From NCBI GenBank assembly GCA_963846885.1, contig CAWJXS010000009.1:1559-65558 (forward strand): a stretch of DNA of 64,000 bases. Reading direction: 5' to 3'. A program made the translations under genes and the position numbers. The stretch is from an uncultured Gammaproteobacteria bacterium (GTDB lineage Bacteria; Pseudomonadota; Gammaproteobacteria; Steroidobacterales; Steroidobacteraceae). This document shows positions 4,366-64,000 of the stretch, piece after piece (positions within the stretch are counted from its first letter, which is position 1; each line of letters begins with the position of its first letter). Under the pieces are notes generated by a model, which saw only the letters and a program-made list of their open reading frames with translations, was not told the origin of the DNA and ran no database searches.

Positions 4366-4373
4366 CGCAGCAG

Positions 4374-9999: not shown

Positions 10000-10235
10000 T
10001 GGCGATGATCTCCTCACGGTCCAAGCCATAGGCCCTGCGCGAGCCTCACAACTGGTAGTGCGGCAGTTCTACGCGAGCCCTGCGCAAAGTCCACCATAAT
10101 TCGCTGGCAAAGCTGTCCTCGACCAGGCACGGCGAGGGCCGGGTGGGGACCTTGGCACGCCGGGCCCATAGGGAGCTGATACCCGGTCATGCAACCGTAT
10201 TGACGGCCAGTTTACAGTTCGATAGATTTAAAAAT

Positions 10236-10583: not shown

Positions 10584-10620
10584 ACGCCAGCGCTGCGCTC
10601 GCCCACCAGGAACCTCATGC

Positions 10621-11100
10621 ATGAACGTCCTTTTCCTGTGCACCGGAAACTCCTGCCGCTCGATCCTCGGCGAGGCCACGTTCAATCACCTGGCGCCAGC
10701 CGGCTGGCGGGCCATGAGCGCCGGCAGCAAGCCCACCGGCCAGGTTCATCCGCGCTCGCTGGCGCTGCTGCGACGCGAAGGCATTGCGACGGAGGGTTAC
10801 CACAGCAAGTCGTGGGACAACCTGCCAGCGACGCCCGACATCGTGATCACGGTTTGCGCCAGCGCGGCGGGTGAAACCTGCCCTGCTTATCTCGGCCCGG
10901 TGCTCCGTACGCACTGGGGTGTCGACGACCCGGCCCACGCAACAGGCACCGACGAGCAGGTCGACGCGGCGTTCATGCAGGCTTACCGCACCCTGCGGCG
11001 GCGCATCGAGGCGTTTCTCGCGCTGCCACTCGACGATCTCGCGCGTGATCCGCGTGGCCTCAAGGCTGCAATGGACCGGATCGGCGCAACGGTGAACTGA
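10621..11100 (+). CDS. arsC: arsenate reductase, LMW-PTP type
   Basis: N-terminal P-loop LCTGNSCRS (CX5R-S) and a downstream Cys pair, VCASAAGETCP. Confidence 0.9.
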   Translation: MNVLFLCTGNSCRSILGEATFNHLAPAGWRAMSAGSKPTGQVHPRSLALLRREGIATEGYHSKSWDNLPATPDIVITVCASAAGETCPAYLGPVLRTHWGVDDPAHATGTDEQVDAAFMQAYRTLRRRIEAFLALPLDDLARDPRGLKAAMDRIGATVN

Positions 11101-11102
11101 AC

Positions 11103-19448: not shown

Positions 19449-19473
19449 GTCACGCAAGGAAGCACCAGACGCG

Positions 19474-20403: not shown

Positions 20404-23358
<2,955 letters not shown>

Positions 23359-34400: not shown

Positions 34401-34843
34401 CGTTGTTGCGTCGCTTCGCCGCTGCGCTCGCCGAGCTCGGCGTCCCGCACGAGCGGCGCGATGCGGCCTCCGCCCGGGTATTGCACGCGCTGAACCTGAC
34501 GCTGGCCGACGAACGCGGTCAGTGGCTGCTGCGCGCGTCGCACCGCGACGCGCAGAGCGAGCTGGCGCTCACGGGCGTGCTCGACCGCGAAGTCGTCAGC
34601 GTCATCGTCGACCGCACGTTCGTCGACGCCGCTGGCACGCGCTGGATCGTCGACTACAAGAGCAGCAGTCACGAAGGCGCGCGACTCGAGGAGTTCCTGG
34701 ACAGCGAACGCGAGCGCTACCGGGGTCAGCTCGAGCGTTACGCCCGGCTGCTGCGTGGTCTCGGTGACGAGCCGATCAGGCTGGGGCTGTACTTTCCGTT
34801 GCTGTCGGCGTGGCGCGAGTGGGAAGCCAGCGGCAATGCGTGA
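31406..34843 (+). CDS. UvrD/REP-family helicase with a C-terminal PD-(D/E)XK nuclease (AddA/RecB-like)
   Basis: ATG 31406 overlaps the upstream gene. Walker A APAGSGKTE, DEFQDTS, C-terminal IVDYKSS nuclease motif. Confidence 0.85.
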   Translation: MQPADLLRADALARATALDVTRSFIVQAPAGSGKTELLTQRFLALLAVVEWPEALLAITFTRKAAAEMRNRILEALRQCGDASSKLRPETRALARRVLEVDARLQWGLLRNPSRLRVLTIDSLNQSLARRLPVLSGLGAGLGIDEDGSKLHELAAERLLSHLPSDDPRTSEAVAVLLEHLDNNVGKLLELVSGMLARREAWLPVLPSDVTAYGQEGDVRATLEASRAAVITAHLERLTQAFPPLLLAELCGHAQGAAQVLAANGKESLIRQCGAGVPGPAVADVAHWQGLAEFLLTKDKKGQLRKSFTVAVGVLPKDPRRPELAALKQRIEAAVEELARHEDAIELLAAARTLPPAVYEDAEWRVLRSLLLVLRLAAGELKAAFAERKAADYPEFAAAARQSLGTAEEPTDTALALDATLKHVLVDEFQDTSEAQVQLLESLTAGWTPDDGRTLFAVGDPMQSIYRFRNAEVGLFLHVRDHGLGALQLEPLTLRVNFRSTQPLVAWVNECFSRVLPDRDDLLRGAVQFAESVASEHAGAEGGVHVHAFLRRSRRFEAETVADIVERRLGETTDARVAILVQGRSHLLDIVAELVRRGIPFQATDIDPLGERPAVLDLLALTRALAHLGDRAAWLAVLRAPWCGLRLADCLAVLGDDRRATTLGLLQDASRRDRLDAAPRARLERCLPVFEQALLERRQLGLRDAVERAWHALGGPATLAVERDIDEARAYLDALGDVEAEAPGAPVDLARLGEALQELYAPARPQPGTRVELLTIHKSKGLQFDTVIVPGLDRIGGSDTPPLLRWLKVPGQAEPSLLIAPIAATGSDEGNPLHAWLGRLERDKLLQEKRRLLYVAATRAERSLHLLGSCAVDADPQTGAHKVRVPNQASALGLLWQDPRFPAAFAQRLDDVDAIVGDDGPGIPRDPILRYLPDGWRVPALPAAPAIEVRNLARATTPASVEFDWASETARHVGTVVHRELQLHARGEGVAPTSDSIRRALLRRFAAALAELGVPHERRDAASARVLHALNLTLADERGQWLLRASHRDAQSELALTGVLDREVVSVIVDRTFVDAAGTRWIVDYKSSSHEGARLEEFLDSERERYRGQLERYARLLRGLGDEPIRLGLYFPLLSAWREWEASGNA

Positions 34844-50180: not shown

Positions 50181-50516
50181 ATGAACAAGTTGCTCCATTC
50201 CATTTCCGTATCTCTCGCCCTGGTCGTTTGCATGCCTGCGTTTGCCGCGGAACCCAGCGCCACGAGCGCGACCGCGCCGGCAGCGACGACCACAGCAGCC
50301 ACGCCGAAGGCGGAGGAGCCCAAGGTGCCGGCAGGCTACAAGGCCAAGACGGTCGAAGGTGAAACCCTCTTCTGTCGCAAGAGCACGCCCATGGGCACGC
50401 GCTTTCCGACCGAGGTCTGCATGACGCAGGCCCAGTACCTGGAAAACGAGCGCAACCGCCAGTCCATGCGCAACGAGCTGCAGGATCGGCAGAAGAGCTA
50501 CTCGATCAACCAGTGA
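50181..50516 (+). CDS. small secreted hypothetical protein
   Basis: GGAGG Shine-Dalgarno, signal peptide ...CMPAFA-AEP, Ala/Thr/Pro-rich linker and two Cys. Followed by a terminator. Confidence 0.6.
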   Translation: MNKLLHSISVSLALVVCMPAFAAEPSATSATAPAATTTAATPKAEEPKVPAGYKAKTVEGETLFCRKSTPMGTRFPTEVCMTQAQYLENERNRQSMRNELQDRQKSYSINQ

Positions 50517-50556
50517 TCTGTCTGCGCCGGGCGCGTGCCCTGGCACCAAAGCAAAA

Positions 50557-50578
50557 GGCCGGCAATGCCGGCCTTTTT
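50557..50578. terminator. bidirectional Rho-independent terminator
   Basis: aaaa-ggccggc-aat-gccggcc-ttttt between convergent genes. Confidence 0.7.
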
Positions 50579-50598
50579 GCGTGGTGACCGGCGGCGGC

Positions 50599-51672
50599 CT
50601 AGGGCGTGGGGACCAGCGTATCCGCCAGGTCCGTCGCGGCGATGCCGCCGCGCAACACGCGGACCTCGAGACCCCGCTCGCTCAGAATGTAAGCGGCAGC
50701 TGAGCTGCGGCGGCCGTTGTCGCACACGACGACGTACGGCAGCGACGGGTCGAGGGTCTTGATCTTGAGGCGAATGAAGTACAGCGGCACGTTGAGCGAA
50801 GGCTCGAGGTGCCAGCGCTCGTACTCGCTCGGCAGGCGCACGTCGAGCCAGACACCGCCATTGCCGACAATCTGCTTGGCCTGTTCGTAGTCCACCCACT
50901 GCAGCATCGGCTCGTTCAGCAGCGTGTTGAAATCGTCCTTGGCGAGACGCATCAGCTCGCCATCGGTCAGCATCGCGATGGTGGCGTTGCGGGTGGCGCC
51001 GGAGATCAGTGCTTCCTCGCCGAACGTGTCGCCCATGCCAAGCTCGGCGAGCTTGATGCCTTCGCGGTTCAGCGGGGTCTCGCGGCTGACCGAGCAGCGG
51101 CCGCGCACGACCACGTAGAAGAAGTCGCCTTCCTCACCTTGCCGGATCACGACGTCGCCGGCGGCGTATGTCATGCGCTGCATGCGCATGAACACGGCCT
51201 GCAGGTTGGCGGGCGGGACGCGATGGAATGCGCGGCTTTGCAGCAGCATCGTCATCCAGTCGTCGGCCGACTCGTCGTTCCGCAGCTCGCCCACTTCGTA
51301 GGTGCCCGTCTGGTCCCAGGTGATCAGCACGTCGAGCAGGTCGCTGTCGATCGACAGGTATTCGATCTTGTCGGAGGCCACGCGGGCCGAGCAGCGGCGG
51401 GGCAGGATGGGCGCGAGCGGATGCCGCGCGTCGGGCGTGCCACCGCGGATCGTGCCGACCACCTTGCCATTGGACAGCAGCTCGACGAGCCCGCTGGCAA
51501 GGTAGTAGGTGCGCTTGTCGGTGTCGCCTTCCTTGAACAGGAGCCGGCCCTGGGTGAGTTCGCGCACGACGGTCTTGCGCGCGAGCGCCCGCAGGTTCTC
51601 GTTCTTGAGTCCGTCGAGCGGCGAAAACGCGCGCAGGAAGCTCAGTTCGACGGTGTTCGGATCGCTGCTCAT
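50599..51672 (-). CDS. protein with two cyclic-nucleotide-binding domains and a C-terminal rhodanese domain
   Basis: ATG 51672. Two cNMP-type segments (LFKEGDTDKRTYYLASG and IRQGEEGDFFYVVVRGR...GDTFGEEALI...RNATI), then a rhodanese fold with the active-site loop VVVCDNGRRS. Confidence 0.7.
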   Translation of the reverse strand: MSSDPNTVELSFLRAFSPLDGLKNENLRALARKTVVRELTQGRLLFKEGDTDKRTYYLASGLVELLSNGKVVGTIRGGTPDARHPLAPILPRRCSARVASDKIEYLSIDSDLLDVLITWDQTGTYEVGELRNDESADDWMTMLLQSRAFHRVPPANLQAVFMRMQRMTYAAGDVVIRQGEEGDFFYVVVRGRCSVSRETPLNREGIKLAELGMGDTFGEEALISGATRNATIAMLTDGELMRLAKDDFNTLLNEPMLQWVDYEQAKQIVGNGGVWLDVRLPSEYERWHLEPSLNVPLYFIRLKIKTLDPSLPYVVVCDNGRRSSAAAYILSERGLEVRVLRGGIAATDLADTLVPTP

Positions 51673-51703
51673 GAATGCCGGGTCAAAACGGTGCCGGATG
51701 GTA

Positions 51704-53755
51704 TCACGCCGCGCGGGAACTGCTGAAGCTCGCCCAGCCCGGATCAGGGCGGAATCGTTCGCCATGCTGCGCCGCGAGCGCTTCCAGGCGCGCCACGACT
51801 GCGGCAACGCCGCGCTCCTCGGCGTAACGCAGCGGCCCACCGCGGAACGGCGCAAAGCCCGAGCCGAAGATCACGCCGGCGTCGATCAGGTCCGCGTCTG
51901 CGACGACGCCCTCGCGCAGCACCGCCATGGACTCGTTGACGAGGGCCAGCATGAGGCGGTCCTCGAGGTCGTCGGGCATCTTCGCGCCCGGGGCAACAGG
52001 CGGCTTCACGGGCTTGCCATCGCGCCATTCGTACAGGCCCTGGCCGGACTTCTTGCCGAGCTTGCCCGCCTCGACCAGCGGCGCCACGGCGTCGGGCGCG
52101 GGCCCGCCGTAAGCGGCGGCGAGGATGCGGCCCACGTGCAGGCACACGTCGAGCCCCACGATGTCCGCGAGTTCGATCGGTCCCATCGGCATGCCGAATC
52201 GCACCGCGACATCGTCGATGGCCGCGAGCGGCACACCCTCGCCCGCGATCAGCATGGCCTCGGTCATGTACGGCATCAGCACGCGATTGACCAGGAACCC
52301 GGGCGCGCTGCGCGTGGGCAATGGCAGCTTGTCGATGGCGCGGGTGAATGCGAGCGCCGCGGCACGTGCCTCGCGCGAAGTGGCGGCAGACTCGATGACC
52401 TCGACCAGCGGCATCTGGGCCACCGGGTTGAAAAAATGCAGTCCGACGAGCCGCCCCGGATCGGCGAGTTGCTCGGCCAGCGGTTCGAGCATCAGGCTGG
52501 AGGTGTTGGTGGCCAGGATCGCACGCGGTGCGAGTTGCGGTTCGACGCGAGCGTACAGCGCGCGCTTGGCCTCGAGGTTCTCGAAAATGGCTTCGATCAC
52601 GACGTCGGCGCGGGCCACTCCTGCGCCGGCGACGTCGGCCTGCAGCCGTGCCATCTGCTCCGCCGCCTTGCCCGGCACGCGACTGCGTTTCTCGAAGAAG
52701 GCGTGGGCACGGTCGAGGGCCGGCTGCACCAGCTCGACGCTGCGATCCTGCAGGGTGACGCTGAAGCCGCGCAGGGCACACCACGCGGCGATGTCCCCGC
52801 CCATCACCCCCGCACCCACCACGTGCACGTGGCCGGCGCTCGGCAGGTCCTTGCCGCCAAGGCCCTTGAGCCGTTCCTGCAGGAAAAAGACCCGCACCAG
52901 GTTGCGCGATGTCGGGGTGCAGACCAGTCGCGCAACCGACTGCGCCTCGGCCTCGTAGCCCGTGCGCCGGCTTGCGCCGTGCCTGCGCCACAGGTCGATG
53001 ATTGCGTACGGCGCCGGATAGTGTGCCTCGCGCGCGCTGCGGCGCACCTGCTGTTCGATCTTGCCGGCGACGATGCCGCGCAGCAGCGGCAGGTTGAGCA
53101 GGCGCTGGCCCAGTGCCGCCTGCCGGCGCGGTCGCGGTTGCAACGCAAGCTTCTTGGCCGCTTCGCGCAGTTGCGCGGCTGGCACGACGAGGTCCACCAG
53201 GCCGGCACGCAGCGCCTTGTCGGGCCGCAGGTTCTTGCCGGTCAGCATCAGGTCCATCGCCGTGGCGACGCCCAGCAGTCGCACGGATCGCACGGTGCCG
53301 CCGAAGCCCGGATGGATGCCCAGCATCACCTCGGGTAAGCCCAGCGTTACCTTCGGATCGTCGGCTGCGACACGGTGCCGGCAGGCGAGCGCGAGTTCGA
53401 GTCCACCGCCGAGGCAATAGCCATTGATCGCCGCGACCGTGGGGAAGGGCATGTCCTCGAGCCGTTGCAGCACGGCGTGGGCCGCGCGGATGGACGGCAC
53501 GGCCTCGTCCGGCCTGCGGACCTGGCCGAACTCCGAGACGTCGGCGCCGGCGATGAAGCCGCTCTTGGCCGAGACGATCACGAGGCCCGCGGGGCTGGCC
53601 TTTGCGACTGCGGCCAGCCGCTCGTCGAGTTCTTCCATGGCCGCGCGTGAAAGCGAATTGGCGCTTGCACCCGGTTTGTCGAAGGTGAGCCACGCGATGC
53701 GGTCTGCATCGATGGTGAGGCTCCACTGATGAGCGGTGTCGGCAGGGATGTTCAT
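51704..53755 (-). CDS. bifunctional enoyl-CoA hydratase / 3-hydroxyacyl-CoA dehydrogenase (FadB/FadJ-like)
   Basis: 683 aa. Crotonase part (FIAGADVSEF, INGYCLGGGLELALAC), then an NAD-binding part (VHVVGAGVMGGDIA). Confidence 0.9.
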   Translation of the reverse strand: MNIPADTAHQWSLTIDADRIAWLTFDKPGASANSLSRAAMEELDERLAAVAKASPAGLVIVSAKSGFIAGADVSEFGQVRRPDEAVPSIRAAHAVLQRLEDMPFPTVAAINGYCLGGGLELALACRHRVAADDPKVTLGLPEVMLGIHPGFGGTVRSVRLLGVATAMDLMLTGKNLRPDKALRAGLVDLVVPAAQLREAAKKLALQPRPRRQAALGQRLLNLPLLRGIVAGKIEQQVRRSAREAHYPAPYAIIDLWRRHGASRRTGYEAEAQSVARLVCTPTSRNLVRVFFLQERLKGLGGKDLPSAGHVHVVGAGVMGGDIAAWCALRGFSVTLQDRSVELVQPALDRAHAFFEKRSRVPGKAAEQMARLQADVAGAGVARADVVIEAIFENLEAKRALYARVEPQLAPRAILATNTSSLMLEPLAEQLADPGRLVGLHFFNPVAQMPLVEVIESAATSREARAAALAFTRAIDKLPLPTRSAPGFLVNRVLMPYMTEAMLIAGEGVPLAAIDDVAVRFGMPMGPIELADIVGLDVCLHVGRILAAAYGGPAPDAVAPLVEAGKLGKKSGQGLYEWRDGKPVKPPVAPGAKMPDDLEDRLMLALVNESMAVLREGVVADADLIDAGVIFGSGFAPFRGGPLRYAEERGVAAVVARLEALAAQHGERFRPDPGWASFSSSRAA

Positions 53756-53782
53756 GGTTGCTCCATGCGCCGCGCGGCGGGT

Positions 53783-54520
53783 TCAGCCGCGGACGCGAAA
53801 ATCGCAGACCAGCGGCCGGTGATCGGACAGCGTGATCTCGGGAATCGAGAACGATTCGATCTCGATGCCCTTCGAGTAAAGGATGAAGTCGAGTTCCATG
53901 CGCGGCTTGCGCGCCGGGTACGACGGCAGGCCCGCGACATTGGCGCTGCGCAGCCCGCTCGCTTCCATGAAGAGGGCAATCTCGTGTTCGCCCCAGAACG
54001 TGTTGAAGTCGCCAGCCACGATCACCGGCTTGGTCGATTTCTTCACCAGCTCGAACACCTGCCGCAGCTGGGCGTGGCGGTGGCGGAACTTGAGCGACAG
54101 GTGCACGAGGAAGACGCAGACGTCGTCGAGCTCGAGCTCGATGATGAGGCGCTTGATGCCGGTGTCGAAGTAGTGGAAACGCTCGCCCTCGACCCGCGGC
54201 GCAGCCAGGAAGGCATTGGACTGCTTGTTCAGGATCGGCACGTACGTGTTGAACGAGCCCGTCCCGTACTTGCACTGGTAGATGGAGTAGTGACCCAGCG
54301 ATTCCGCGATCACCGCGGCCTGGTTCACGTTGCGGGTGCGGATCGAACCGGTGTCGACCTCGATCAGGCCGACGATGTCGGGGTCGGCCGACTTGATGAA
54401 CCGGGTGATGCCCGCCAGGACGCGCTTGTCGCTGCGCAGGTAGCCCGCGCCCGGGACCGGGAGGTGGAAAGCGGCGCCGGTGCCCGTGGCGTAGCGGATG
54501 TTATAAAGCAGAAAGCGCAT
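53783..54520 (-). CDS. endonuclease/exonuclease/phosphatase (EEP) family protein
   Basis: MRFLLYNIRY..., GLIEVD, VAGDFN and LSDHRP are the EEP catalytic motifs. Confidence 0.8.
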   Translation of the reverse strand: MRFLLYNIRYATGTGAAFHLPVPGAGYLRSDKRVLAGITRFIKSADPDIVGLIEVDTGSIRTRNVNQAAVIAESLGHYSIYQCKYGTGSFNTYVPILNKQSNAFLAAPRVEGERFHYFDTGIKRLIIELELDDVCVFLVHLSLKFRHRHAQLRQVFELVKKSTKPVIVAGDFNTFWGEHEIALFMEASGLRSANVAGLPSYPARKPRMELDFILYSKGIEIESFSIPEITLSDHRPLVCDFRVRG

Positions 54521-54580
54521 CAGGCCTCAATTCTACGGCTCCGGGGGATGATCCGGAACGGGATGCGCTAGGCTAGACTA

Positions 54581-55081
54581 TTGCGGCTTGCCGATTGCAA
54601 GGATGTCGACGGAGGCTCCGTGAGCAGCGTCACCCAGAAGAATCCGATCCGCCTGTTCGTCGCGCACGTGTGGGCGAAGGACGACGACTACCTGCGTATA
54701 TTTGAGTACGTAGAAAGCGTACCCAACTTCTTCTACAGCAACACCAGCACGCCCGAAGTGCGGCCGCCCGGCGACCGCGAGGTCCTGCGCGAGTCGCTGC
54801 GCAACCAGATCACCGCGGCAGAAGTCGTCATCGTGCCGGCCACGCTTTACCGCACCAACGTGGACTGGGTCGAGTTCCAGATGCACTGCGCCAAGGCCTA
54901 CGACAAGCCGATCCTCGTGGTCGAGCCGTTTGGCAGCACCGACACGATCGCGCCCGCAGTGCAGGAATTAGCCGATGACGTGGTGCCGTGGGACCGGCGG
55001 CAGTTGATCGATGCGATCAAGCGCGAGGCGCGTCATGAAGAGACGACGCGCTTCGACGTCATCGAGTTCAAGCTCGACTGA
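54581..55081 (+). CDS. stand-alone TIR-like (DUF1863-type) domain protein
   Basis: IRLFVAHVW...AAEVVIVPATLYRTNVDWVEFQMHCAKAYDKPILVVEPFG matches the strand-helix pattern of MTH538/TIR-like domains. Alternative start at GTG 54620, after GGAGG. Assignment is by pattern only. Confidence 0.45.
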   Translation: MRLADCKDVDGGSVSSVTQKNPIRLFVAHVWAKDDDYLRIFEYVESVPNFFYSNTSTPEVRPPGDREVLRESLRNQITAAEVVIVPATLYRTNVDWVEFQMHCAKAYDKPILVVEPFGSTDTIAPAVQELADDVVPWDRRQLIDAIKREARHEETTRFDVIEFKLD

Positions 55082-55457
55082 GGAAAGCCGGGACCTCGAA
55101 CAGGTCGTTGGTGAGCGCGTCGTCGGCGTCGCTGCTGACGATGCGCAGGCGGGGCGCGCTTTCTTGCTCAGCCGACAACACCACGAACATGTCGAAGATC
55201 GCCGCAGCATGCTCCGCGGCGTCGCGTTCAGACATCTTGCGCACTGAAGTCTCAGGGGCTGTCAGGCCGCCGGCGGGCCGGGCCTCGTGCATGGCCGCCT
55301 TCAGGGTGGCGAAGCGGACATGCAGCGCCTCGGGCAGGTCCTGCTCGCGCAGCGCGGCCAGGTGATTCCGGTACGCATCGAGCAGACGCTGCTTGACCGG
55401 GCCACTGCCCACCAGCAGGTGCATCGCCGCCTGAAATTCTTCCCACAAGGCTGCCAT
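55068..55457 (-). CDS. hypothetical helical protein
   Basis: 129-aa ORF with normal codon bias. Its 3' end overlaps the 3' end of the TIR-like gene by 14 nt. Confidence 0.5.
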   Translation of the reverse strand: MAALWEEFQAAMHLLVGSGPVKQRLLDAYRNHLAALREQDLPEALHVRFATLKAAMHEARPAGGLTAPETSVRKMSERDAAEHAAAIFDMFVVLSAEQESAPRLRIVSSDADDALTNDLFEVPAFLSRA

Positions 55458-55680
55458 GGTCTGTCCCCGACTGCCAAAAACTTTTAAAATACAGTGCCTT
55501 GCAGCTTAATCTTAATCTGAAAAGTTCGGACTGGTGTGGCCCGTAAAACCCGATAAGAATCAGCCAAGTACGACATGAATATACGCCAGTGTATTAGAAC
55601 CGCAACGAGGGAATGGTTCCAGTCTGGTCCGTTCCCGGTCCCGCAAACCTCACCCCAGTGCTCCTGCCTATAATCCGCCC

Positions 55681-56745
55681 ATGACCCAGACCACCACCGA
55701 GCCGACGGCATGCCGCGGCTATGCCGCCTCCAGCGCCCAGAGCGGCATGGCGCCGTACGCCTTCACTCGCCGGGCGCTGCGCGCCAACGACGTGCGCATC
55801 GACATCCGCTACTGCGGCGTCTGCCACTCCGACCTGCACCAGGCCCGCAACGACTGGCGCAACACCGTTTATCCCTGCCTCCCCGGGCACGAGATCGTCG
55901 GCCAGGTGGCCGCGGTGGGTCCGGACGTCAAGCGCTACCGGGCGGGGGACTGGGTGGCCGTGGGTTGCCTCGTGGACAGTTGCCGCGATTGCGTCGAATG
56001 CAACGCGGGTCGCGAGGTGTTCTGCAAGAAAGGCGCGACGCTGACCTACAACGGCAAGGACCGGCAGACCGGCGACGTCACGCTGGGCGGCTACTCGTCG
56101 CACATCGTCGTGCGCGAGGACTTCGTGCTGCGCATGCCCGAGGGCCTCGACCCGGCGCGTGCCGCGCCGTTGCTCTGCGCCGGTATCACGACGTACTCGC
56201 CGTTGCGGCACTGGAACGTGGGGCCGGGCTCGCAGGTGGCCGTCGCGGGCCTCGGCGGCCTGGGGCACATGGGCGTCAAGCTGGCGAATGCGCTGGGCGC
56301 CGAAGTCACGGTGATCACGCGCTCGGCTGCCAAGGCTGAAGAGGCGAGGGCGCTTGGCGCGCACCACGTGCTGCTGTCTGCGGATCCGGACGCCATGAAG
56401 CAGGCCGCGGGCCGCTTCGATTTCGTGCTCGACACGATCCCGGTGGTCCACGAACTCGACTCTTCACTGCGACTGCTGCGCACGCACGGTGCGCTGGTCC
56501 TGGTCGGCGTGATCGACACGATTCCCGCCTTCACCAGTCGCCTGCTGATCGGCGGGCGCAAGACGCTGTCGGGCTCGGCCATCGGCGGCATCGCTGAAAC
56601 GCAGGAGTTGCTCGATTTCTGCGCGCAGAAGGGGATCGTGGCGGACTGCGAGATGACGACGATGCCGGAAATCAACACGGCGTTCGAGCGCATGGAAAGG
56701 GGCGACGTCCGCTATCGTTTCGTCGTGGACATGCAGACGCTGTAA
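55681..56745 (+). CDS. Zn-dependent NAD(P) alcohol dehydrogenase (YahK/cinnamyl-ADH-like)
   Basis: GVCHSDLH, PGHEIVG, structural-Zn Cys cluster CRDCVECNAG..FC, GLGGLGH. Confidence 0.92.
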   Translation: MTQTTTEPTACRGYAASSAQSGMAPYAFTRRALRANDVRIDIRYCGVCHSDLHQARNDWRNTVYPCLPGHEIVGQVAAVGPDVKRYRAGDWVAVGCLVDSCRDCVECNAGREVFCKKGATLTYNGKDRQTGDVTLGGYSSHIVVREDFVLRMPEGLDPARAAPLLCAGITTYSPLRHWNVGPGSQVAVAGLGGLGHMGVKLANALGAEVTVITRSAAKAEEARALGAHHVLLSADPDAMKQAAGRFDFVLDTIPVVHELDSSLRLLRTHGALVLVGVIDTIPAFTSRLLIGGRKTLSGSAIGGIAETQELLDFCAQKGIVADCEMTTMPEINTAFERMERGDVRYRFVVDMQTL

Positions 56746-56757
56746 GCGCGCCGCGCG

Positions 56758-57838
56758 ATGCTCGTCTCGACGACGCTCACGGGCAGCAACGCCGACATCA
56801 TCGGCGACGCGCTCGCTTCCGTGGTCACGCAGGTCGATCGCTGCCTGGTCGTCGATACTGGCGCCAAGGACGACACCCTGGCTGTCGCGCGCAGCGTCGC
56901 CGGGGACAAGCTGGTGGTGCGCGAGCTGGCCTGGCCCAACGATTTCGCCGCGGCACGCAACTTCGCCCTCGATGCAGCCACCGAGCTTGGCGGCACCTGG
57001 GCGATCACGGTGGATACGGACGAGCGACTCGTGTTCGACCCGGGCGTCCGGCTGTCGCAGCTGCTGGGTGCCTCGCGCGCCCAGGTGTGCATGGTCGTCG
57101 ACGACCTGGGTAATTACTCCAAAGAGCGCGTCGTGCGCCTGCCGTCGAAAGTGCGCTGGGCCGGTCCCACGCATGAATGCCTGGAGGGACGCACGAGCGC
57201 AGATACCGCGACGCTGCAGGGCGTGCGGTTTCACGAATTGTCCAAAGATCCGGCGGCGATGCGCAGGAAGTTCGAGCGCGACCTGGCCTTGCTCAAGCGC
57301 CATACGCGGCAGCATGCGAAGCAGGCGCGCTGGTATTACTACCTTGGCGCCACGCATCAGCAGCTCGGAGATTACGCCGCAGCGATCGACGCCTTTCGCA
57401 CCTGCGCCGAATTGCGCGGCTGGGAAGAAGAGGGCGCCTGGGCCTGTTATAGGCGCGGCGGAATGCTGCTGCAGCTTGCAGCGCTGGGACGACGCGCTGC
57501 AGTTCTGTGCCGCCGGACTCGCGATCCGGCCCGCCACGGCAGAGCTGGCCTGGCTCGCGGGTTTTGCGGCATACAAGGGCATGCGCTTCGGCGACGCAGT
57601 GGCGTGGTCGCGCATGGCCATCGCCAATGGCCTGTATCGGGGGGACGGCGCGGACTTCGAACGCGTCGGTTTCCGTCATCCGCCGGCCTTGTACGAAGGC
57701 CCGTACGACGTGCTGCGCTGGGCGTACCAGGCGCTTGGCAACTCACAGGCGGCTGCCGCGGCTGCGAATGACTATGAGCAGGCCAGGGCGGCGCGCGAGT
57801 CCGCTGCGGCGCCTGCTGCGGTCGCGCGTGCCGAATGA
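56758..57838 (+). pseudogene. glycosyltransferase-like protein with TPR-like C-terminal half, reading frame broken near 57454
   Basis: ORF 56758.. reads sensibly to ...GWEEEGAWACYR and then becomes Arg-rich junk. The sensible continuation AAECCCSLQRWDDALQFCAAGLAIRP...ALGNSQAAAAAANDYEQ is in the frame of ORF 56972..57838. One extra nucleotide lies at about 57454. Confidence 0.6.
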
Positions 57839-58371
57839 CGGGCACGGCGTTCAGGCGGGGCGTGGTGGACGATGCGACAGCGCTGGCCGAGTTTGCAGCG
57901 AGGACGTTCGCAGAAGCCTTTGGCGCGGCAACCGATCCCGCCGACATGGCAGCGCACCTGGCGGGCACCTATCGTCCCGACCTGCAGGCGGCCGAACTGG
58001 CCGATCCGGACGTCATCACGCTGTTGGCCGTGCAATGCGAGCGCATCGTTGGCTACGCGCAGGTGCGACGCAATGATGCGCCGCCGGCGTGTGTCGTCGC
58101 GCCCGACCCGGTGGAGCTCCAGCGTTTCTATGCGGACGGTTCCGTGCGCGGCACCGGCCTTGCCGCGCAACTGATGCATCGCGCGCTGCAGGCGGCCATC
58201 GAACTGGGTGGGCGACACGCATGGCTCGGCGTGTGGGAACACAACGCACGCGCCATCGCCTTCTACCGCAAGGCGGGTTTCGAGGAGATCGGCCTGACCG
58301 TGTACGTGGTCGGCTCCGACGCACAGACCGACCGAGTGTTCATGACACCGCTTACGCCCCGCAACCAATGA
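57835..58371 (+). CDS. GNAT-family N-acetyltransferase
   Basis: 178 aa with the acetyl-CoA motif LQRFYADGSVRGTGLAAQLM and AIAFYRKAGF. Confidence 0.8.
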   Translation: MTGTAFRRGVVDDATALAEFAARTFAEAFGAATDPADMAAHLAGTYRPDLQAAELADPDVITLLAVQCERIVGYAQVRRNDAPPACVVAPDPVELQRFYADGSVRGTGLAAQLMHRALQAAIELGGRHAWLGVWEHNARAIAFYRKAGFEEIGLTVYVVGSDAQTDRVFMTPLTPRNQ

Positions 58372-59459
58372 GAGGATCGCTCGTGCAACGTTACAAGGTC
58401 GTGCAGTGGGCGACGGGTGGCATGGGCAAGAACTGCCTGCGCGCGATCATCGATCATCCCGCAATGGAACTCGTCGGCGTGTACGTCTACGGCGCCGACA
58501 AGGCAGGGAAGGACGCCGGCGATATCGCGCGCCGCGCTCCCACCGGCGTGCGGGCGACGCGCGACGTCGAGGAGATTCTCGCGCTCGACGCAGACGTCGT
58601 GATTCACGCGGCGCGGCTCGCGCCACCGTACGGCTCGCACGATGCGGACATCATTCGACTGCTTGCCGCGGGCAAGAACGTCATCAGCATCAATGGTTAC
58701 AGCCAGCCACAGCACTGGGGCGGCGAGCGCCTGGCCGCGCTGGAAAGCGCCTGCAGGAAAGGCGGCAGTTCGCTGCTTGGTGCGGGCCTCAACCCCGGCT
58801 TTGCCGGTGAGCAGCTGGCAGTCGTCGCGACGGGTGTCTGCACCGACGTCGACCGCATCGAAGTGATCGAGAGCGTGGATTGCAGGCCCGTGCGCAGTCC
58901 TGCCTATGTGTTCGACATCCTCGGGTTCAACGCTGATCCCGCCGCAGTCGATCCGAACGACCCCGCATGGGGGCCAACCTCATCGCTGAACGGCATGTAT
59001 ACGGAGGTGCTGGCCAACATGGCGACGCACCTGCGGATGCCGCTCGAGCGCGTCGAGACCGAACACAGAGTGTTCGCCGCCGCAGCGGACCTGCACGTGG
59101 GCGCCGGCCTCATTGCAGCGGGACGCGTCAGTCATTTCAACTGGCGCTGGCACGGAATCGTCGCCGGCGCGCCGCGCCTGACGATGTCCATCCACTGGTA
59201 CATGGAAACGACGCACCTCGACGAACCGCAGCCGCCTTTGTGGCGCATCCACGTGGCAGGGCAGCCGGGTGTGCGCATCGCGCTCGACATGGAAAAGCGG
59301 GCGGGCGACACGTCACCCACTTCGGCGGAACAGATTGCAGTCGCGGGCTCGGTGATCAACGCGATTCCCATCGTGTGCGCCGCCGCGCCCGGCGTGATCA
59401 GGCGCCCCCTCGCCACGCCGTTTCAGTACGACCTGAGCGCGCCAGGCCGGGCAGGGTAG
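58368..59459 (+). CDS. NAD(P)-binding oxidoreductase (DapB-N/saccharopine-dehydrogenase-like)
   Basis: ATG 58368 overlaps the GNAT stop (ATGA). KVVQWATGGMGKNCLRAI Rossmann start. Confidence 0.6.
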   Translation: MRGSLVQRYKVVQWATGGMGKNCLRAIIDHPAMELVGVYVYGADKAGKDAGDIARRAPTGVRATRDVEEILALDADVVIHAARLAPPYGSHDADIIRLLAAGKNVISINGYSQPQHWGGERLAALESACRKGGSSLLGAGLNPGFAGEQLAVVATGVCTDVDRIEVIESVDCRPVRSPAYVFDILGFNADPAAVDPNDPAWGPTSSLNGMYTEVLANMATHLRMPLERVETEHRVFAAAADLHVGAGLIAAGRVSHFNWRWHGIVAGAPRLTMSIHWYMETTHLDEPQPPLWRIHVAGQPGVRIALDMEKRAGDTSPTSAEQIAVAGSVINAIPIVCAAAPGVIRRPLATPFQYDLSAPGRAG

Positions 59460-59470
59460 CGAGGGCCGGT

Positions 59471-59941
59471 TCAGTAAGGGCGCCCGTCCTTGTGGAAGTA
59501 GTTGCTGGCGCCGGCACTGTAGCGCCCGGGCTTGAATGCCATGTCGATGTCTGAGTACTCACCGTGGTCCGCGTCATTGCGATTGCCTGCGACCAGGAAC
59601 ACGGCGTCGTCGGCAGAGCGATTCTGCAGGCAATGGCCATTGCGTTCACCCGCAGGGAAACCCGCGCAATCGCCGGCGACCAGGATTTCCTCGCCGTCAT
59701 CGGTGACGAGCACCAGTTCACCCGTCAGCATGTAGACGAACTCGTCTTCATGCGCGTGCCAGTGCCGCTGGCTGGACCACGCACCCGGCGCAAGACGCAC
59801 CAGGTTCACGCCCATCTGTGTGAGGCCGGCAGCCGCGCCGAGCCGATGCCAGCTGCGACCGCGACAGGGAACATCGAAAGGGGCCGGGTAGGTGGAGCCC
59901 GAGCCCTGTGGCGCAGTGGAGAGATCGATCTTCTTCGACAT
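59471..59941 (-). CDS. cupin-domain protein
   Basis: ATG 59941. HWHAHEDEFVYMLTGE...GDCAGFPAG..NGHCLQN are cupin motifs 1 and 2. Confidence 0.8.
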   Translation of the reverse strand: MSKKIDLSTAPQGSGSTYPAPFDVPCRGRSWHRLGAAAGLTQMGVNLVRLAPGAWSSQRHWHAHEDEFVYMLTGELVLVTDDGEEILVAGDCAGFPAGERNGHCLQNRSADDAVFLVAGNRNDADHGEYSDIDMAFKPGRYSAGASNYFHKDGRPY

Positions 59942-60043
59942 GTGGCACCTCCAGTGTCGCGCGCAACCGGTGATGCCGGGCATGGTAACCGTGATGCGGC
60001 GCATAATTGAATGGATCGCGGGCACGGGAGGCCAGGGAATTCC

Positions 60044-61045
60044 ATGAAGGCTGCACTCATCGATCGGTATGGAAGCAAGGCACCCATCAGAGTGGCCGAC
60101 ATTCCCGTGCCATCGATCGGCGACAGGGATCTGCTGGTTCAGGTCCGGGCTGCCAGCGTGAATCCACTCGACTTCAAGATCCGTCGCGGCAAGCTGAAGG
60201 TCTTGTTGAAGTACCGCTTTCCACTGGTGCTGGGCAACGACCTGTCGGGCATCGTCACTGCCGTTGGCGCAGGTGTGACTCGCTTCAAACCTGGCGATGC
60301 GATCTATGCGCGATTGGACAAGGACCGTATAGGCGCGTTCGCCGAGTTCGCTGCTGTGCGGGAAGGCGCGGCAGCGCCGATGCCGGCAAATGTCACTTTC
60401 GAGGAAGCAGCCTCGCTACCGCTGGTCGCACTGACTGCCTGGCAGGCATTGATAGAGATCGGAAAGTTGAGTGCGGGCCAGAAGGTCCTGATTCATGCAG
60501 GCAGCGGCGGTGTCGGCAGCATGGCCATCCAGATCGCGCGTCATCTGGGGGCCACGGTCCTCACGACCGCGGGACAACGCAACGCAGAACTTGTGAAGAG
60601 CCTCGGTGCAGACGTCGCCATCGACTACCGTAGCGTTCGCTTCGAAGACGTGGCCCGCGATTGCGACGTCGTGCTCGACAGCGCCGGCGGCGAAACGCTG
60701 CTCAGGTCGTTTGCATGCGTGAAACCCGGCGGCGTCGTGGTCAGCATCGGCGATACGCCGTCCACGGCCTTTGCTCGCAGCTGGGGCCTGAATCCAGTCA
60801 TGGTCTTCGTGGTGGGCCTGATGTCACGCAAGGCAGAGGCCGCCGCCCGCAAACACCAGGCTCGTTTCGAGTATCTGTTCATGCGGCCTGACGGCGAGCA
60901 GCTGCGACTGATCGCGCAGCTCGTAGAGAGCGGTGAAATCAAACCAGTCATCGACAAGGTCTTTTCGCTGGACCACGTGGGTGACGCGCTGGCGTACTCA
61001 GAGTCCGGTCGGGCAACGGGGAAGGTAGTGATCAAGGTTGCCTGA
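60044..61045 (+). CDS. NADPH:quinone oxidoreductase (MDR superfamily, zeta-crystallin-like)
   Basis: ATG 60044. VQVRAASVNPLDFKIRRG, VLIHAGSGGVGSMAIQIA. Confidence 0.88.
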   Translation: MKAALIDRYGSKAPIRVADIPVPSIGDRDLLVQVRAASVNPLDFKIRRGKLKVLLKYRFPLVLGNDLSGIVTAVGAGVTRFKPGDAIYARLDKDRIGAFAEFAAVREGAAAPMPANVTFEEAASLPLVALTAWQALIEIGKLSAGQKVLIHAGSGGVGSMAIQIARHLGATVLTTAGQRNAELVKSLGADVAIDYRSVRFEDVARDCDVVLDSAGGETLLRSFACVKPGGVVVSIGDTPSTAFARSWGLNPVMVFVVGLMSRKAEAAARKHQARFEYLFMRPDGEQLRLIAQLVESGEIKPVIDKVFSLDHVGDALAYSESGRATGKVVIKVA

Positions 61046-61088
61046 GGCGGCTGATGGCCGGAGGTACGGGTTCATGCGGGGTTCGAGC

Positions 61089-61116
61089 GGTTCGCATAAT
61101 GTATAGCAAGCATTAA
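61089..61116. other. dif-like XerC/XerD site (hybrid att junction of an integrated element)
   Basis: GGTTCGCATAA-TGTATA-GCAAGCATTAA compared with E. coli dif GGTGCGCATAA-TGTATA-TTATGTTAAAT: left arm 10/11, spacer 6/6, right arm degenerate. Lies exactly at the GC-content break. Confidence 0.75.
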
Positions 61117-61119
61117 TTA

Positions 61120-61148
61120 TTGACTGCCGAATTTCGGCGGAATAACAA
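61120..61148 (+). promoter_or_regulatory. candidate sigma-70 promoter with a palindrome in the spacer
   Basis: TTGACT, 17 nt, TAACAA, about 60 nt upstream of the 61209 ORF. The spacer contains CCGAA-T-TTCGG. Confidence 0.35.
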
Positions 61149-61208
61149 TGACTTGCGACGCAGTACAACTTGTGCAGTCTGGCAGCCTCGAAGTGATCAG
61201 ATTCCATC

Positions 61209-61772
61209 GTGGAAGAAAGCGAACAAAAAACACTGGACGCTCGGAATGAGGCATTTCGGTGTCTGGGACGAAACCTCTATCTGATACAGCTAATCGAGCA
61301 CCAGCTAAAGCACTTGGTTGTGCACGCCTCAGTTGAAGGGTACGCGGGGGAGCTTGTCGAGGTGCTAGCGAAGAAATCGAAGCTGGCACGAAAGGCGTCA
61401 ATGGGTACGCTTACAAGTCAGCTCACGACAGCAGTATTCCGGGACACGGCTGACGAGCGACGAGAGCCTGCGAACAATACCGAGGCATGGTTTTCTTTCT
61501 CTTATCGGTTCGAAGCAGACGAGACATTCGTCCGGCAGCGAAAGATGGAACTGCGAAGATTGGTGCGTGAGCGGAACAAGCTAATTCATACGGCGGCTGC
61601 GGAGATCAAACCGGAAGATGCAGAGAAGTGGATCGAACTCATAATGCTGCTAAATGAGCAGAGAAACGAGCTGGCTGCTGAGCACGAGAAGCTTCGGATC
61701 ATGATCGTTGATCTTGCTGAGATGGCAAAGCAATCAGCCCAGGTCATCCAATCTAAACTGCTTCGGGACTGA
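61209..61772 (+). CDS. hypothetical helical protein with an HEPN-type RNxxxH motif (cassette gene A)
   Basis: 187-aa ORF with GTG start in the low-GC island. VRERNKLIH (R122-H127, nt 61572..61589), followed by a coiled-coil-like tail. Confidence 0.55.
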   Translation: MEESEQKTLDARNEAFRCLGRNLYLIQLIEHQLKHLVVHASVEGYAGELVEVLAKKSKLARKASMGTLTSQLTTAVFRDTADERREPANNTEAWFSFSYRFEADETFVRQRKMELRRLVRERNKLIHTAAAEIKPEDAEKWIELIMLLNEQRNELAAEHEKLRIMIVDLAEMAKQSAQVIQSKLLRD

Positions 61773-61841
61773 ATCACGCCAACGTCGCCGAAACGTTTAT
61801 ATAGGCGTGCTGACAAACGCTTGATCGAGGGGCCGAAAGAA

Positions 61842-62681
61842 ATGACGGACGAAGCGAAGCCAGATGACAAGAAATTGGAATCCGCTCCTTGGACCCCGAA
61901 AGATTGGGTGCAGCAATGCAAGGGCACGTCTCTATCGATAGTTGTGCCGCCATACATCCGATTCTTGCAAGGAACTCTGATGCTAAGAAAAGCGCAGGGT
62001 TTCCTTTATGCAGCAGCATTTGTCAGCAAGCAGGGACTACATCAAGGGTTGGCTTCAACGTTTGCTGCATTAGATGACACAGACGACTCGCGTGCGCTCG
62101 GCCTGAATTTCGAAACGTACTTCGCTTCACAATTACTGATCAATCTCGTATCGGAAGTGGAGCATTTCATGGCAAGCGCGATCGGTGCAGCGCTGCAATA
62201 TCATCCAGAGAAGATGGGGAAAACGACGTTCACGCTAGCGGAGGTGATGGCAGCAGAATCGCCGAAGGAGCTGGTCAAGCATGCTGCGGCCTCGATGCTC
62301 AATGCCATCATGTACGAAAAGCCGAAGGACTATCTGAAGAGGTTTGCAGAGATAGTATCGATAGATGACCGTGCGTTGGAGAAGCGCTGGCCTCGGTTTG
62401 TTGAACTGAAGGCGCGTCGCGATTTGGGTGTTCACAACAACTGGATGGTGAATGAGATATACCTAAGAAAGCTGCGCGAAGTAGACCTGAATACTGATGT
62501 AAAGGTCGGCGACAGGATCGTCCCAGACTTCGCATATCTCACGGATTCATCGGCCTTCTGCGATGATTTGGTAGCGAAGCTGGCTGATCTATTGGGGCAA
62601 AAGTGGATACCTGGCCCCACCGAAGCAACTACATTAAATGCGCGCATGAGCCTGGCGACGCAGCCGCCCGCAGAGGGCTAA
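61842..62681 (+). CDS. hypothetical protein with an HEPN-type Rx4H motif (cassette gene B)
   Basis: ATG 61842 after GAGGGG; the ORF track begins at TTG 61821. KARRDLGVHNNW (nt 62418..62435). Helical composition. Confidence 0.6.
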   Translation: MTDEAKPDDKKLESAPWTPKDWVQQCKGTSLSIVVPPYIRFLQGTLMLRKAQGFLYAAAFVSKQGLHQGLASTFAALDDTDDSRALGLNFETYFASQLLINLVSEVEHFMASAIGAALQYHPEKMGKTTFTLAEVMAAESPKELVKHAAASMLNAIMYEKPKDYLKRFAEIVSIDDRALEKRWPRFVELKARRDLGVHNNWMVNEIYLRKLREVDLNTDVKVGDRIVPDFAYLTDSSAFCDDLVAKLADLLGQKWIPGPTEATTLNARMSLATQPPAEG

Positions 62682-62709
62682 TTGTGACTCCTCGAAAGCA
62701 GCCGGATTG

Positions 62710-63567
62710 CTAAGAGGGAAGGGCGGACAGCTGCCACGTGCCGAGACGGAAAGCTACCGACTCCCACCACTCTCCTGTTACCGCCGATCGCCAGCCGCCA
62801 CCTCGAGCTCGACGCACACGGTCCTCCGGCTCACAGCGTTCGCGCTGATACTTGGGAAGCATCCACCACGCGCGATAGGTGCGCCGCTCGCGATTCAACC
62901 CTCCGTGGCCGTGTAGTCGACAACCGCGCGGAAACGGGACAGCTGAGGTTGCGGTCTTGGTCGCGTACTTCACCAAGTAGCCAATTCCTTTGCGCGCCCA
63001 CTGCACGTTCGTGAAGCCATGCGGCCACCATCCTTGCTTGTCTGGCTTCGGCATCGTGATACCACGTGGAAGCCAAATAATGGCGTGATAGTGGACCCGG
63101 CCCGACTTGTGCTGCTCAGCAACCCACAGGTACCGGAATTGAACGCCGCGCCGCGCGACCCAATGCCGCATGCGCTTCAGGCACTCGGTAAGGTGTCGAG
63201 GTTGCCACTCGACGCCTGGACGATAAGTGAACGTCACGAACGCACGGGAAAGCCTACGGCCATCGTCCGCGCGCTCGTCCATGAGCACGTCACCAACGCA
63301 CGACAAGCTCTTGAACATGTGAAGGCCACGCCGACGCTGCTGCTCCTCGCGCAGCCATGCGTAACAACCTGCTGCGGTCGTGTCACTTGTTACTGATCTG
63401 ACAAGCCCAGCAGGCGAGGGTGCTAGCCGCCCCGCCGGGGCGTCTGGCAAGCCTCCGGCCTGCCGATCCGCATCCGGCGGCGATGCGACCTGCCCACCGT
63501 CTGCGGCCGCTCTGGGGGCATTGAAGCCCCCGCGGCCGCAGCCCGTGGACAGCTCGCCGAGCGTCAT
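62710..63567 (-). CDS. HUH-superfamily rolling-circle replication initiator (phiX174 gpA / filamentous-phage gpII type)
   Basis: Motif 1 FVTFTY, motif 2 HYHAIIW (HUH), motif 3 YLVKYATK (YxxKY). ATG 63567 overlaps the upstream gene's stop (ATGA). Confidence 0.85.
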   Translation of the reverse strand: MTLGELSTGCGRGGFNAPRAAADGGQVASPPDADRQAGGLPDAPAGRLAPSPAGLVRSVTSDTTAAGCYAWLREEQQRRRGLHMFKSLSCVGDVLMDERADDGRRLSRAFVTFTYRPGVEWQPRHLTECLKRMRHWVARRGVQFRYLWVAEQHKSGRVHYHAIIWLPRGITMPKPDKQGWWPHGFTNVQWARKGIGYLVKYATKTATSAVPFPRGCRLHGHGGLNRERRTYRAWWMLPKYQRERCEPEDRVRRARGGGWRSAVTGEWWESVAFRLGTWQLSALPS

Positions 63568-63923
63568 GCTGATTTGAGGATGCGCCAGTATTCGTCCGTG
63601 GCGCGGGGGTTGTCGTGACAAAGCTCGCGGGCGAGCTGGACGATCAGCCAGTGCGCGTCCAACTGGCCGCGGGTGAACTCTTTGCCCTCGGGGGTGGCTA
63701 GACGGTCTTTGATGACTGACCACTCGCGCCATTCGGGGCCGAGAACTCGGCCATCCCTGTGCAGTTCAAACAGGCGCAGAGCTTGCTTGGACGGCTTACG
63801 CGAGCCGGATTTGTAAAGGCAAGCGGTCTGGTGGCTGACGCAGCACCAGGCTTGGATCACTTCAACGGGATAGCCGTAGAAATGAAGTGGCGTCGGCTTT
63901 TTGGTTTTGTTGGCTCGGCGCAT
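63564..63923 (-). CDS. small phage-associated regulatory/DNA-binding protein (DUF3653-like)
   Basis: 119 aa, translationally coupled to Rep. The pattern W..W.....RL.TPEGKEF..G.L recalls a family found in filamentous and temperate phages. Assignment is from memory only. Confidence 0.5.
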   Translation of the reverse strand: MRRANKTKKPTPLHFYGYPVEVIQAWCCVSHQTACLYKSGSRKPSKQALRLFELHRDGRVLGPEWREWSVIKDRLATPEGKEFTRGQLDAHWLIVQLARELCHDNPRATDEYWRILKSA

Positions 63924-64000
63924 GGGCTGCGCAGACGAACGCGTGCCGTTGGCTCCATAGGGCCACGTAGAGGCGATTTGTCTGCATAGATGCTGACCGA

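Follow-up and report, generated by a model that had tools for sequence, protein, structure and literature searches.

Near the right end of a 64-kb window of DNA from an uncultured gammaproteobacterium (the window being the whole stretch of 64,000 nt that was analysed), a dif-like site at 61089-61116 joins a chromosomal arm to the end of a ~3-kb insert. We conclude that this insert is very probably a satellite integrative mobile element that exploits Xer (an IMEX) of the TLCphi type, which carries cargo genes, encodes no integrase, and entered the chromosomal dif through the host recombinases XerC and XerD. Our observations cover the integration product and its two junctions, of which the right one was seen in a 94%-identical assembly, as well as an empty site, the genes of the element, and the conservation of its att arms and layout in relatives.

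The left junction

Compared with E. coli dif (GGTGCGCATAA TGTATA TTATGTTAAAT), the 28-mer at the junction (Table 1) is identical at 10/11 positions of the XerC arm, 6/6 of the central region and 3/11 of the right arm, in agreement with the sequence and counts given in an earlier note on this DNA. Measured against the local dif, the XerC arm and central region together match at 16/17 positions and the right arm matches the XerD arm, TTATGTCAAAA, at 4/11. The site thus lacks the canonical XerD arm (TTATG...) of a functional 11-6-11 dif; the functional dif is the opposite junction, not this one. A TLC-type attP shows the same pattern: its XerC arm is canonical, its centre is that of the host dif, and its XerD arm departs from the canonical form. 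Read from the inside, the right arm is GCAAG..., with the G at the fifth position retained as in the arms of Xanthomonas phages. Within the same arm (61106-61116), GCATTAA is a direct, not inverted, near-repeat of the XerC-arm core GCATAA (61094-61099), possibly by coincidence.

The 15-mer TTCGCATAATGTATA has a single exact occurrence in the window, and 0.14 matches would be expected in shuffled sequence even with up to three mismatches allowed. The earlier note had linked it to the att core of Xanthomonas filamentous phages, and we indeed found the same 15-mer in XacF1, Cf1c and phiLf, followed by a degenerate arm (GAGGGTGGGTA or GAAGGTGCCGT); in the phiLf record it carries the annotation "xerC/D recombination site". 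The site also lies at a compositional boundary, as had been proposed: past the end of the alcohol dehydrogenase gene at 61045, the GC content of ~0.62-0.68 drops to 0.52-0.55 across 61-63 kb.

An empty site and the right junction

A scan of species-representative genomes with the dehydrogenase protein returned one close relative only, an uncultured gammaproteobacterial metagenome-assembled genome (L001). Its alcohol dehydrogenase orthologue is 87% identical to the window protein and is followed by an intact dif, and positions 144-11062 of L001 are collinear with window positions 50295-61105 (10.8 kb) at 88-93% identity. At the orthologous position L001 has a canonical dif, GGTACGCATAA-TGTATA-TTATGTCAAAA; the alignment holds to 61105, the last base of the central region, and the two sequences are unrelated from 61106 on. 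Because the homology breaks exactly after the central region, we conclude that the crossover took place within dif and joined the chromosomal XerC arm and central region to foreign DNA. The proposal that the 28-mer is a chromosome/element hybrid is borne out by this comparison with a relative that lacks the insertion, in which the site is empty and dif is intact.

The right junction was found in L120, a separate assembly of the same locus and the contig of a frameshifted 396-aa member (P0146) of the 90% cluster of the DUF3653 protein described below; exact-protein look-ups of the window alcohol dehydrogenase, DUF3653 and Rep products returned no record. Positions 1-2932 of the reverse complement of this contig (L120rc) align with window 61082-64000 at 94.2% identity with many indels, which suggest a noisy long-read assembly. 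L120rc carries a hybrid site, GGTACGCATAA-TGTATA-GCAAGCATTAA, at position 8 and a full dif, GGTACGCATAA-TGTATA-TTATGCAAAAT, at position 3039, giving an insert of 3,031 bp from hybrid site to full dif. The 140 nt at L120rc 3039-3178 are 85.7% identical to L001 11046-11183, a segment made up of dif and the flank to its right. The further intact dif that the earlier note had anticipated some kb to the right is therefore present in this assembly, at a place that lies outside the window; in the window's own genome the regenerated dif is predicted at ~64107-64134, ~106 nt past the window end. With the empty site and the breakpoint from L001 and the right junction and flank from L120, the insertion in the chromosomal dif is precise.

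Two flanking dif-like sites are seen in L120 and in three of the relatives described below (L105, L113 and L109); the window itself shows just the left one. We also considered a tandem array within the window and rejected it, as 61117-64000 contains no second dif-like site even under relaxed scoring. A 1,930-nt Logan contig (L108, from ERR10755943) is 100% identical to window 61093-63022 and ends inside Rep. It starts exactly at CGCATAATG, just past the base at which the window XerC arm (GGTT) differs from the GGTA of L120, L001 and the relatives, a start that could come about if the assembly graph branched there owing to an attP circle, a tandem copy or a second strain; being ambiguous, it was not used as evidence.

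Gene content of the element

The element consists of four open reading frames (ORFs), namely two low-GC cargo genes on the plus strand and, on the minus strand, a gene for a HUH Rep and one for a protein with a helix-turn-helix (HTH) and DUF3653 (Table 1). In the orientation of dif, the order is hybrid site, cargo 1, cargo 2, Rep, HTH-DUF3653, ~180 nt of non-coding DNA and the regenerated full dif. No integrase or recombinase domain was found in the four ORFs with Pfam, PHROG, NCBIfam and PADLOC. Neither is there a gene for single-stranded DNA binding, coat or Zot/pI assembly among these ORFs of an element whose full length is 3,031 bp in L120, and coat genes would not fit between them since the intergenic gaps are only 28-183 nt.

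Table 1. Features of the junction and the element (window coordinates)
Feature	Position	Strand	Basis
Zinc-type alcohol dehydrogenase, chromosomal, last gene before dif, synteny anchor	60044-61045	+	Pfam ADH_N, ADH_zinc_N, ADH_zinc_N_2
Hybrid attL, 28-mer GGTTCGCATAATGTATAGCAAGCATTAA = GGTTCGCATAA-TGTATA-GCAAGCATTAA	61089-61116	+	sequence read
Chromosomal XerC arm GGTTCGCATAA	61089-61099	+	part of hybrid attL
Central region TGTATA	61100-61105	+	part of hybrid attL
Degenerate right arm GCAAGCATTAA, element-derived	61106-61116	+	L001 homology stops at 61105
Visible part of integrated element	61106-64000	.	comparison with L120
Non-coding leader adjoining attL	61117-61208	+	seven-element alignment
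Cargo gene 1, 187 aa, low GC, HEPN-like, RNKLIH (Rx4H)	61209-61772	+	Pfam HEPN_RiboL-PSP, below cutoff
Cargo gene 2, 279 aa, low GC, all-alpha family, motif ELKARRDLGVHNNW (Rx4H)	61842-62681	+	homologue alignment
Rolling-circle Rep, pII-like, 285 aa	62710-63567	-	Pfam REP_ORF2-G2P 1.3e-35; PHROG 2969 6.6e-43
HTH + DUF3653 protein, 119 aa, XafT/PSB15-like, terminal gene beside regenerated dif	63564-63923	-	Pfam DUF3653

The Rep motifs TxTY, HYH and YxxKYxxK are invariant in alignment A4, and the best cultured relatives of Rep are the pII proteins of Xanthomonas phages Cf1c, Lf, XacF1, Xf109 and Xf409, at 42% identity. The earlier note had called the DNA to the right of the site phage-like. This stands in so far as the Rep and the att core are shared with the Xanthomonas phages; the insert is not a filamentous prophage, having 3 kb, four genes, no structural or assembly genes and an inverted Rep/DUF3653 module, and blastn of window 61046-64000 gave no match to cultured phages. 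The stop codon of the HTH-DUF3653 gene overlaps the Rep ATG (ATGA). We considered a fused or frameshifted DUF3653-Rep gene and rejected it, as the overlap leaves two intact, coupled ORFs and the same pair is found in L110 and L113.

The first cargo protein matches Pfam HEPN_RiboL-PSP with an E value of 1.3e-4 and 22.3 bits, below the 28.4-bit cutoff, and had no match in PADLOC, PHROG or NCBIfam; its position is also called as a gene in L108. For the second, no family match was found in Pfam, PADLOC, PHROG or NCBIfam. It has 78 homologue clusters, with ELKARRDLGVHNNW invariant in alignment A6, and its AlphaFold2 (AF2) model has a predicted local distance difference test score (pLDDT) of 92; a fold search with the model yielded no PDB match. 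Searching the PDB by sequence with the cargo proteins and the DUF3653 protein gave no useful information. In the two other genomic contexts consulted, a homologue of the second protein is encoded by the second gene of a pair in which the first gene varies, this being SLATT_5 in Vreelandella janggokensis (L114 5340-5930) and a 256-aa protein of unknown type in L115-L119. The arrangement resembles a cassette for conflict or defence in which one partner can be exchanged.

The leader between attL and the first cargo gene retains TTATTGAC, AATCA and GTGCA[G/A]A[C/T]TG in seven otherwise diverged elements, including L102-L107. It also contains a promoter-like TTGACT-18-AACAAT at 61120-61149 that faces the cargo genes; the scan gave 2 sites against 1.0 expected, which is weak alone. 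The leader could act as a promoter, an origin, or an accessory binding site for Xer or the DUF3653 protein. A conserved hairpin, with the idea of a packaging signal or origin, was rejected when RNAalifold returned 4 invariant pairs and no covariation.

The HTH-DUF3653 protein

The terminal gene product scores 28 bits against Pfam DUF3653, above the 22.4-bit cutoff. Its AF2 model shows three N-terminal helices, and the fold matches only generic XRE-type HTH proteins. The subfamily comprises 516 clusters at 50% identity (E up to 1e-3), and its profile aligns by hhalign with PSB15 of phiLf at an E value of 2.2e-5, with the W.G(F/W) and TPEG motifs aligned.

In TLCphi, the HTH and DUF3653 protein XafT activates XerD, and DUF3653 genes cluster near dif (PMC6744903). 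XafT accepts nearly any XerD arm if the innermost base 1 (T) or base 5 (G) fits dif (PMC9226527). This activation is described as FtsK-independent, with XerD exchange first and XerC exchange second, and the integrated TLCphi has an attP-like site at one end and dif at the other (PMC6744903, PMC9226527, PMC4246890). As related members, phiLf, Cf1c and the gonococcal genetic island (GGI) are listed in the column for XerD-first exchange, which we read as the TLCphi column (PMC4246890). By analogy with XafT, we reason that the DUF3653 protein of the window may be an activator of this kind.

Relatives of the element

A metagenome scan for ATAATGTATAGCAAGCATTAA returned six contigs, all with (G)GTACGCATAA-TGTATA-GCAAGCATTAATT. 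On the left these contigs have unrelated flanks of high GC that look chromosomal, and on the right conservation is only partial. Across seven elements the central region and right arm, TGTATAGCAAGCATTAATT, are invariant; the flanks average 58% identity, the left ones being unrelated. In L107 the C-terminus of a Rep is found 1.1 kb to the right of the site. The exact att-arm patterns were absent from IMG/VR. Further examples (L105 and L109-L113) include contigs reached via DUF3653 homologues.

Of these, L105 is complete at 4,742 bp and consists of a hybrid site, genes for an FAA hydrolase, an ion channel and a membrane protein, Rep and DUF3653 genes on the minus strand, and a full dif. The same order is compressed into 2,564 bp in L113, and in L110-L112 a full dif lies 238 nt upstream of the DUF3653 gene. 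Identity to the window Rep ranges from 35 to 57% (57% in L113, 35-36% in L105 and L110); the att arm is nonetheless invariant. Every full dif has TGTATA at its centre, as do the hybrid sites of L105, L113, L120 and the window; in the decayed hybrid site of L109 the centre is AGCATA. There, at 8202-10602, only the DUF3653 gene and a gene for an insertion sequence-like HTH transposase lie between a full dif and the degenerate site (GATGCGCATAA AGCATA GCAAGCACCAA), and a TIR/TPR gene is located just outside the hybrid site. In the reverse complement of L104, two hybrid-type sites, GGCACGCATAA TGTATA GCAAGCATTAA at ~38 and CTTACGCATAA TGTATG GCAAGCCACCT at ~397, are 359 nt apart, which points to a tandem array or to a scar left when an element integrated earlier.

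The relatives span 2.6-4.7 kb with shared att arms and layout and different cargo, which across the elements includes the HEPN-like pair, an HNH nuclease, DUF4304, an ion channel and an FAA hydrolase, among others. We tentatively suggest that such elements of 2.5-4.7 kb may form an undescribed family of dif-integrating satellite replicons, marked by Rep, HTH-DUF3653, an invariant TGTATA-GCAAGCATTAATT and a hypervariable slot from attL to the 3' end of Rep, which would serve as a small shuttle of conflict and accessory genes to the terminus of environmental Gammaproteobacteria. If so, catalogues of viruses and plasmids would miss elements of this kind, as there were no matches in IMG/VR, INPHARED or PLSDB.

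tblastn with the Lf and XacF1 proteins showed the relatives of Rep in IMG/VR (40-60% identity) to be accompanied by a Zot-like gene in all cases except the short contig L085, and several also have pV or coat genes. Four of the IMG/VR relatives (L082, L091, L094 and L095) yielded an att-like site with a degenerate arm; in these, as in the Xanthomonas phages, the site is co-oriented with Rep and ~0.7-1 kb upstream of the gene.

A proposed route of integration

XerD-first catalysis, an activator role for the DUF3653 protein, excision, dependence on a helper, the function of the cargo and the way the element spreads are inferred; the course that we consider most likely is the following. As in TLCphi, a circular double-stranded form would carry an attP made up of a canonical XerC arm, TGTATA and GCAAGCATTAA, the predicted junction of the circle being ...GAACCATACAGGTACGCATAATGTATAGCAAGCATTAATTATTGAC. 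Host XerC would occupy the good arm and XerD, weakly, the poor right arm, and the DUF3653 protein of the element would switch on XerD without FtsK. By the same analogy, strand exchange with dif would be carried out by XerD and then by XerC. The left product would be the hybrid site, with the chromosomal XerC arm and the right arm of the element; the right product would be a working dif, with the XerC arm of the element and the chromosomal XerD arm, so that the host would keep its dimer resolution. Rep would drive rolling-circle replication of the excised circle, and spread from cell to cell would need a helper filamentous phage. Because Rep is present and virion genes are absent, a satellite with a helper inovirus is the most economical view.

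Of the known systems, TLCphi, the Vibrio cholerae satellite and TLC-type IMEX, is similar in its size (~3-5 kb), its lack of integrase and morphogenesis genes, its rolling-circle Rep and its HTH and DUF3653 protein. It also resembles the present element in having an attP with a good XerC arm, a centre matching dif and a non-canonical XerD arm, and in leaving an attP-like site at one end on integration and a regenerated functional dif at the other (PMC6744903, PMC9226527, PMC4246890). The present element differs in its host, an uncultured soil or freshwater gammaproteobacterium, in the sequence of its right arm, in a DUF3653 protein that falls below the VC1465-family cutoff (41 vs 70 bits), in a slot for variable cargo that separates attL from the 3' end of Rep, and in having no known helper.

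The Xanthomonas phages Cf1c, phiLf, XacF1, Xf109 and Xf409, which are Inoviridae at dif, share with it a Rep at 42% identity, the core TTCGCATAATGTATA, a degenerate arm with a fifth-position G, and HTH and DUF3653 functions on the strand opposite attP, beside its XerC-arm side. Those phages, however, are complete, with pV, coat proteins and Zot/pI, whereas here structural genes are absent and cargo is present instead; their Rep shares the orientation of attP and lies ~0.7-1 kb downstream, whereas here it is inverted; and their HTH and DUF3653 are separate ORFs, with PSB15 acting in packaging and not in integration. The Vibrio CTX-I inovirus prophages likewise have xafT as the terminal gene at an att junction and hypervariable cargo in a dif-integrated element; unlike the present element they are full inoviruses, and their variable region lies between zot and xafT, whereas here it is at the opposite end, between attL and Rep (PMC12715192). 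Among the non-phage IMEXs, the GGI differs in its large size, in its type IV secretion system and in lacking a Rep or DUF3653 protein.

Alternative explanations

Several points weigh against a TLCphi-type satellite activated by its DUF3653 protein. The protein scores 41 bits (E 1.4e-10) against NCBIfam NF040522, 'VC1465 family Xer recombination activation factor', below the 70-bit cutoff, and the innermost base of the right arm, base 1, is G, whereas T is favoured. In phiLf-UK, Xer integration does not require the DUF3653 protein PSB15, which binds the packaging signal (bioRxiv 10.1101/2024.03.19.585677), so that the presence of DUF3653 alone does not prove a role in Xer activation. Relatives of the DUF3653 protein were found neither by a profile scan of IMG/VR nor by tblastn against cultured phages and PLSDB plasmids. 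The right junction lies outside the window and is taken from L120, a different and indel-rich assembly; some of the relatives are decaying, L109 having lost Rep and L113 having a Rep of only 185 aa; and neither a circular form nor a helper phage, a packaging signal or a replication origin was found. A rival reading is that the same element integrated by a XerC-started reaction, as CTX and VGJ do, or with no activator of its own, and that the HTH-DUF3653 protein is a PSB15-like packaging-signal binder or regulator that lets the satellite hijack the assembly of a helper. The alignment with PSB15 and its shared motifs, the score below the XafT cutoff and the Xanthomonas phage pII as closest Rep all speak for this reading. 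Nevertheless, we consider it rather unlikely, since the HTH is fused to DUF3653 as in XafT and not in a separate ORF as in the Xanthomonas phages (PMC6744903), the att site has the TLC-type signature of a dif-identical centre and a degenerate XerD arm with a fifth G (PMC9226527), and the gene is terminal, beside dif, like xafT of the Vibrio CTX-I prophages (PMC12715192).

The remaining alternatives concern the element as a whole. It could be a decayed, immobile remnant of a formerly complete filamentous prophage from which the structural genes were deleted, in which case there would be no self-standing satellite family. Such an origin would be in keeping with the Zot-like gene, and in several cases pV or coat genes, of the genomes in which the Rep relatives sit (cultured, and in IMG/VR all but the short L085), with the decay visible in L109 and L113, and with the lack of an observed circular form. 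It is improbable in view of the compact att-cargo-Rep(-)-DUF3653(-)-dif layout, which recurs in at least four independent elements whose Reps are 35-57% identical and whose cargo and hosts differ, with an invariant att arm and with motifs kept in the full-length Reps; separate deletions would not repeatedly yield identical borders or an inverted Rep, and Rep is translationally coupled to the DUF3653 gene through the ATGA overlap. That the window instead shows the left end of a complete Cf1c/Lf-type filamentous prophage running past its end, as the earlier note implied and as the 42% identity of Rep to Cf1c/Lf/XacF1 pII and the identical 15-mer att core might have led one to think, is contradicted by L120, where the full dif is only 3,031 bp from the hybrid site and chromosomal flank lies beyond. 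Homologues of pV, pVIII, pIII, pVI and pI are absent from the ORFs of the element, the contig of the window is only 65,829 nt long, and Rep faces attL rather than away from it; with Rep pointing at attL and 1.6 kb of cargo in between, the arrangement is not that of a Cf1c-type prophage, and we regard this possibility as very remote. Finally, a chance dif-like motif, or a variant dif of the host itself without any insertion, has only the short length of the motif in its favour and can be virtually dismissed: the match is exact where 0.14 are expected even at up to three mismatches, L001 carries a canonical XerD arm in the corresponding place, and the right arm and the DNA beyond it recur in elements with unrelated flanks.

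We thus retain the reading of the insert as a mini-IMEX of 3 kb and four genes that is like TLCphi but has a slot for cargo, and that may be called a compact variant. It extends the known class by a compact, cargo-carrying form without overturning current understanding, and it provides a clean occupied-versus-empty case of Xer-mediated insertion beyond Vibrio, Xanthomonas and Neisseria. With a XafT-like protein and a Xanthomonas-phage-related Rep within four genes, it would be a convenient minimal system for probing the role of DUF3653. The variable slot with two Rx4H (HEPN-like) proteins suggests that small IMEXs can bring conflict genes to the terminus.

The replication terminus

The window is chromosomal, with nusA, infB, smc, ligA and an addB/addA-like nuclease-helicase pair. 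Its cumulative GC skew climbs throughout, the skew averaging +0.017 left of the site, whereas to the right of dif in L120 all 2-kb bins are negative (mean -0.056); the right flank of L001 alone, at +0.008, gives no clear sign. The FtsK-orienting polar sequence (KOPS)-like GGGNAGGG is present in the window seven times on the plus strand (17457, 37724, 41454, 41808, 53442, 59449 and 62716) and once on the minus strand (27402). The positions and polarity listed in the earlier note are correct, and its list was incomplete, with four of the seven plus-strand copies. L001 has two plus copies to the left of dif and two minus copies to the right, and to the right of dif in L120, L113, L109 and L110 there are only minus-strand copies; the counts per locus are small and all concordant. 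Because the GC skew changes sign and KOPS point at dif from either side, the locus of the site is the dif/replication terminus region, as had been predicted. For this uncultured gammaproteobacterial lineage, the site thereby fixes where the terminus lies and what the sequence of dif is. The 53.8-61.0 kb stretch, previously described as an accessory belt, is kept at 88-93% identity in L001 and so is not strain-specific.

Core genes are found at window positions 297-4365, 15939-22446 and 28804-34843, thus within 60 kb of the terminus. On the other side, L120 shares only the first ~110 nt past dif with L001, which makes the right side of the terminus a variable island. Directly to the right of dif, L120rc 3067-13022 is ~10 kb of lower-GC DNA (0.56-0.66) that carries a type I restriction-modification system (HsdR, HsdM and HsdS) and AAA_15/SMC_N fragments.

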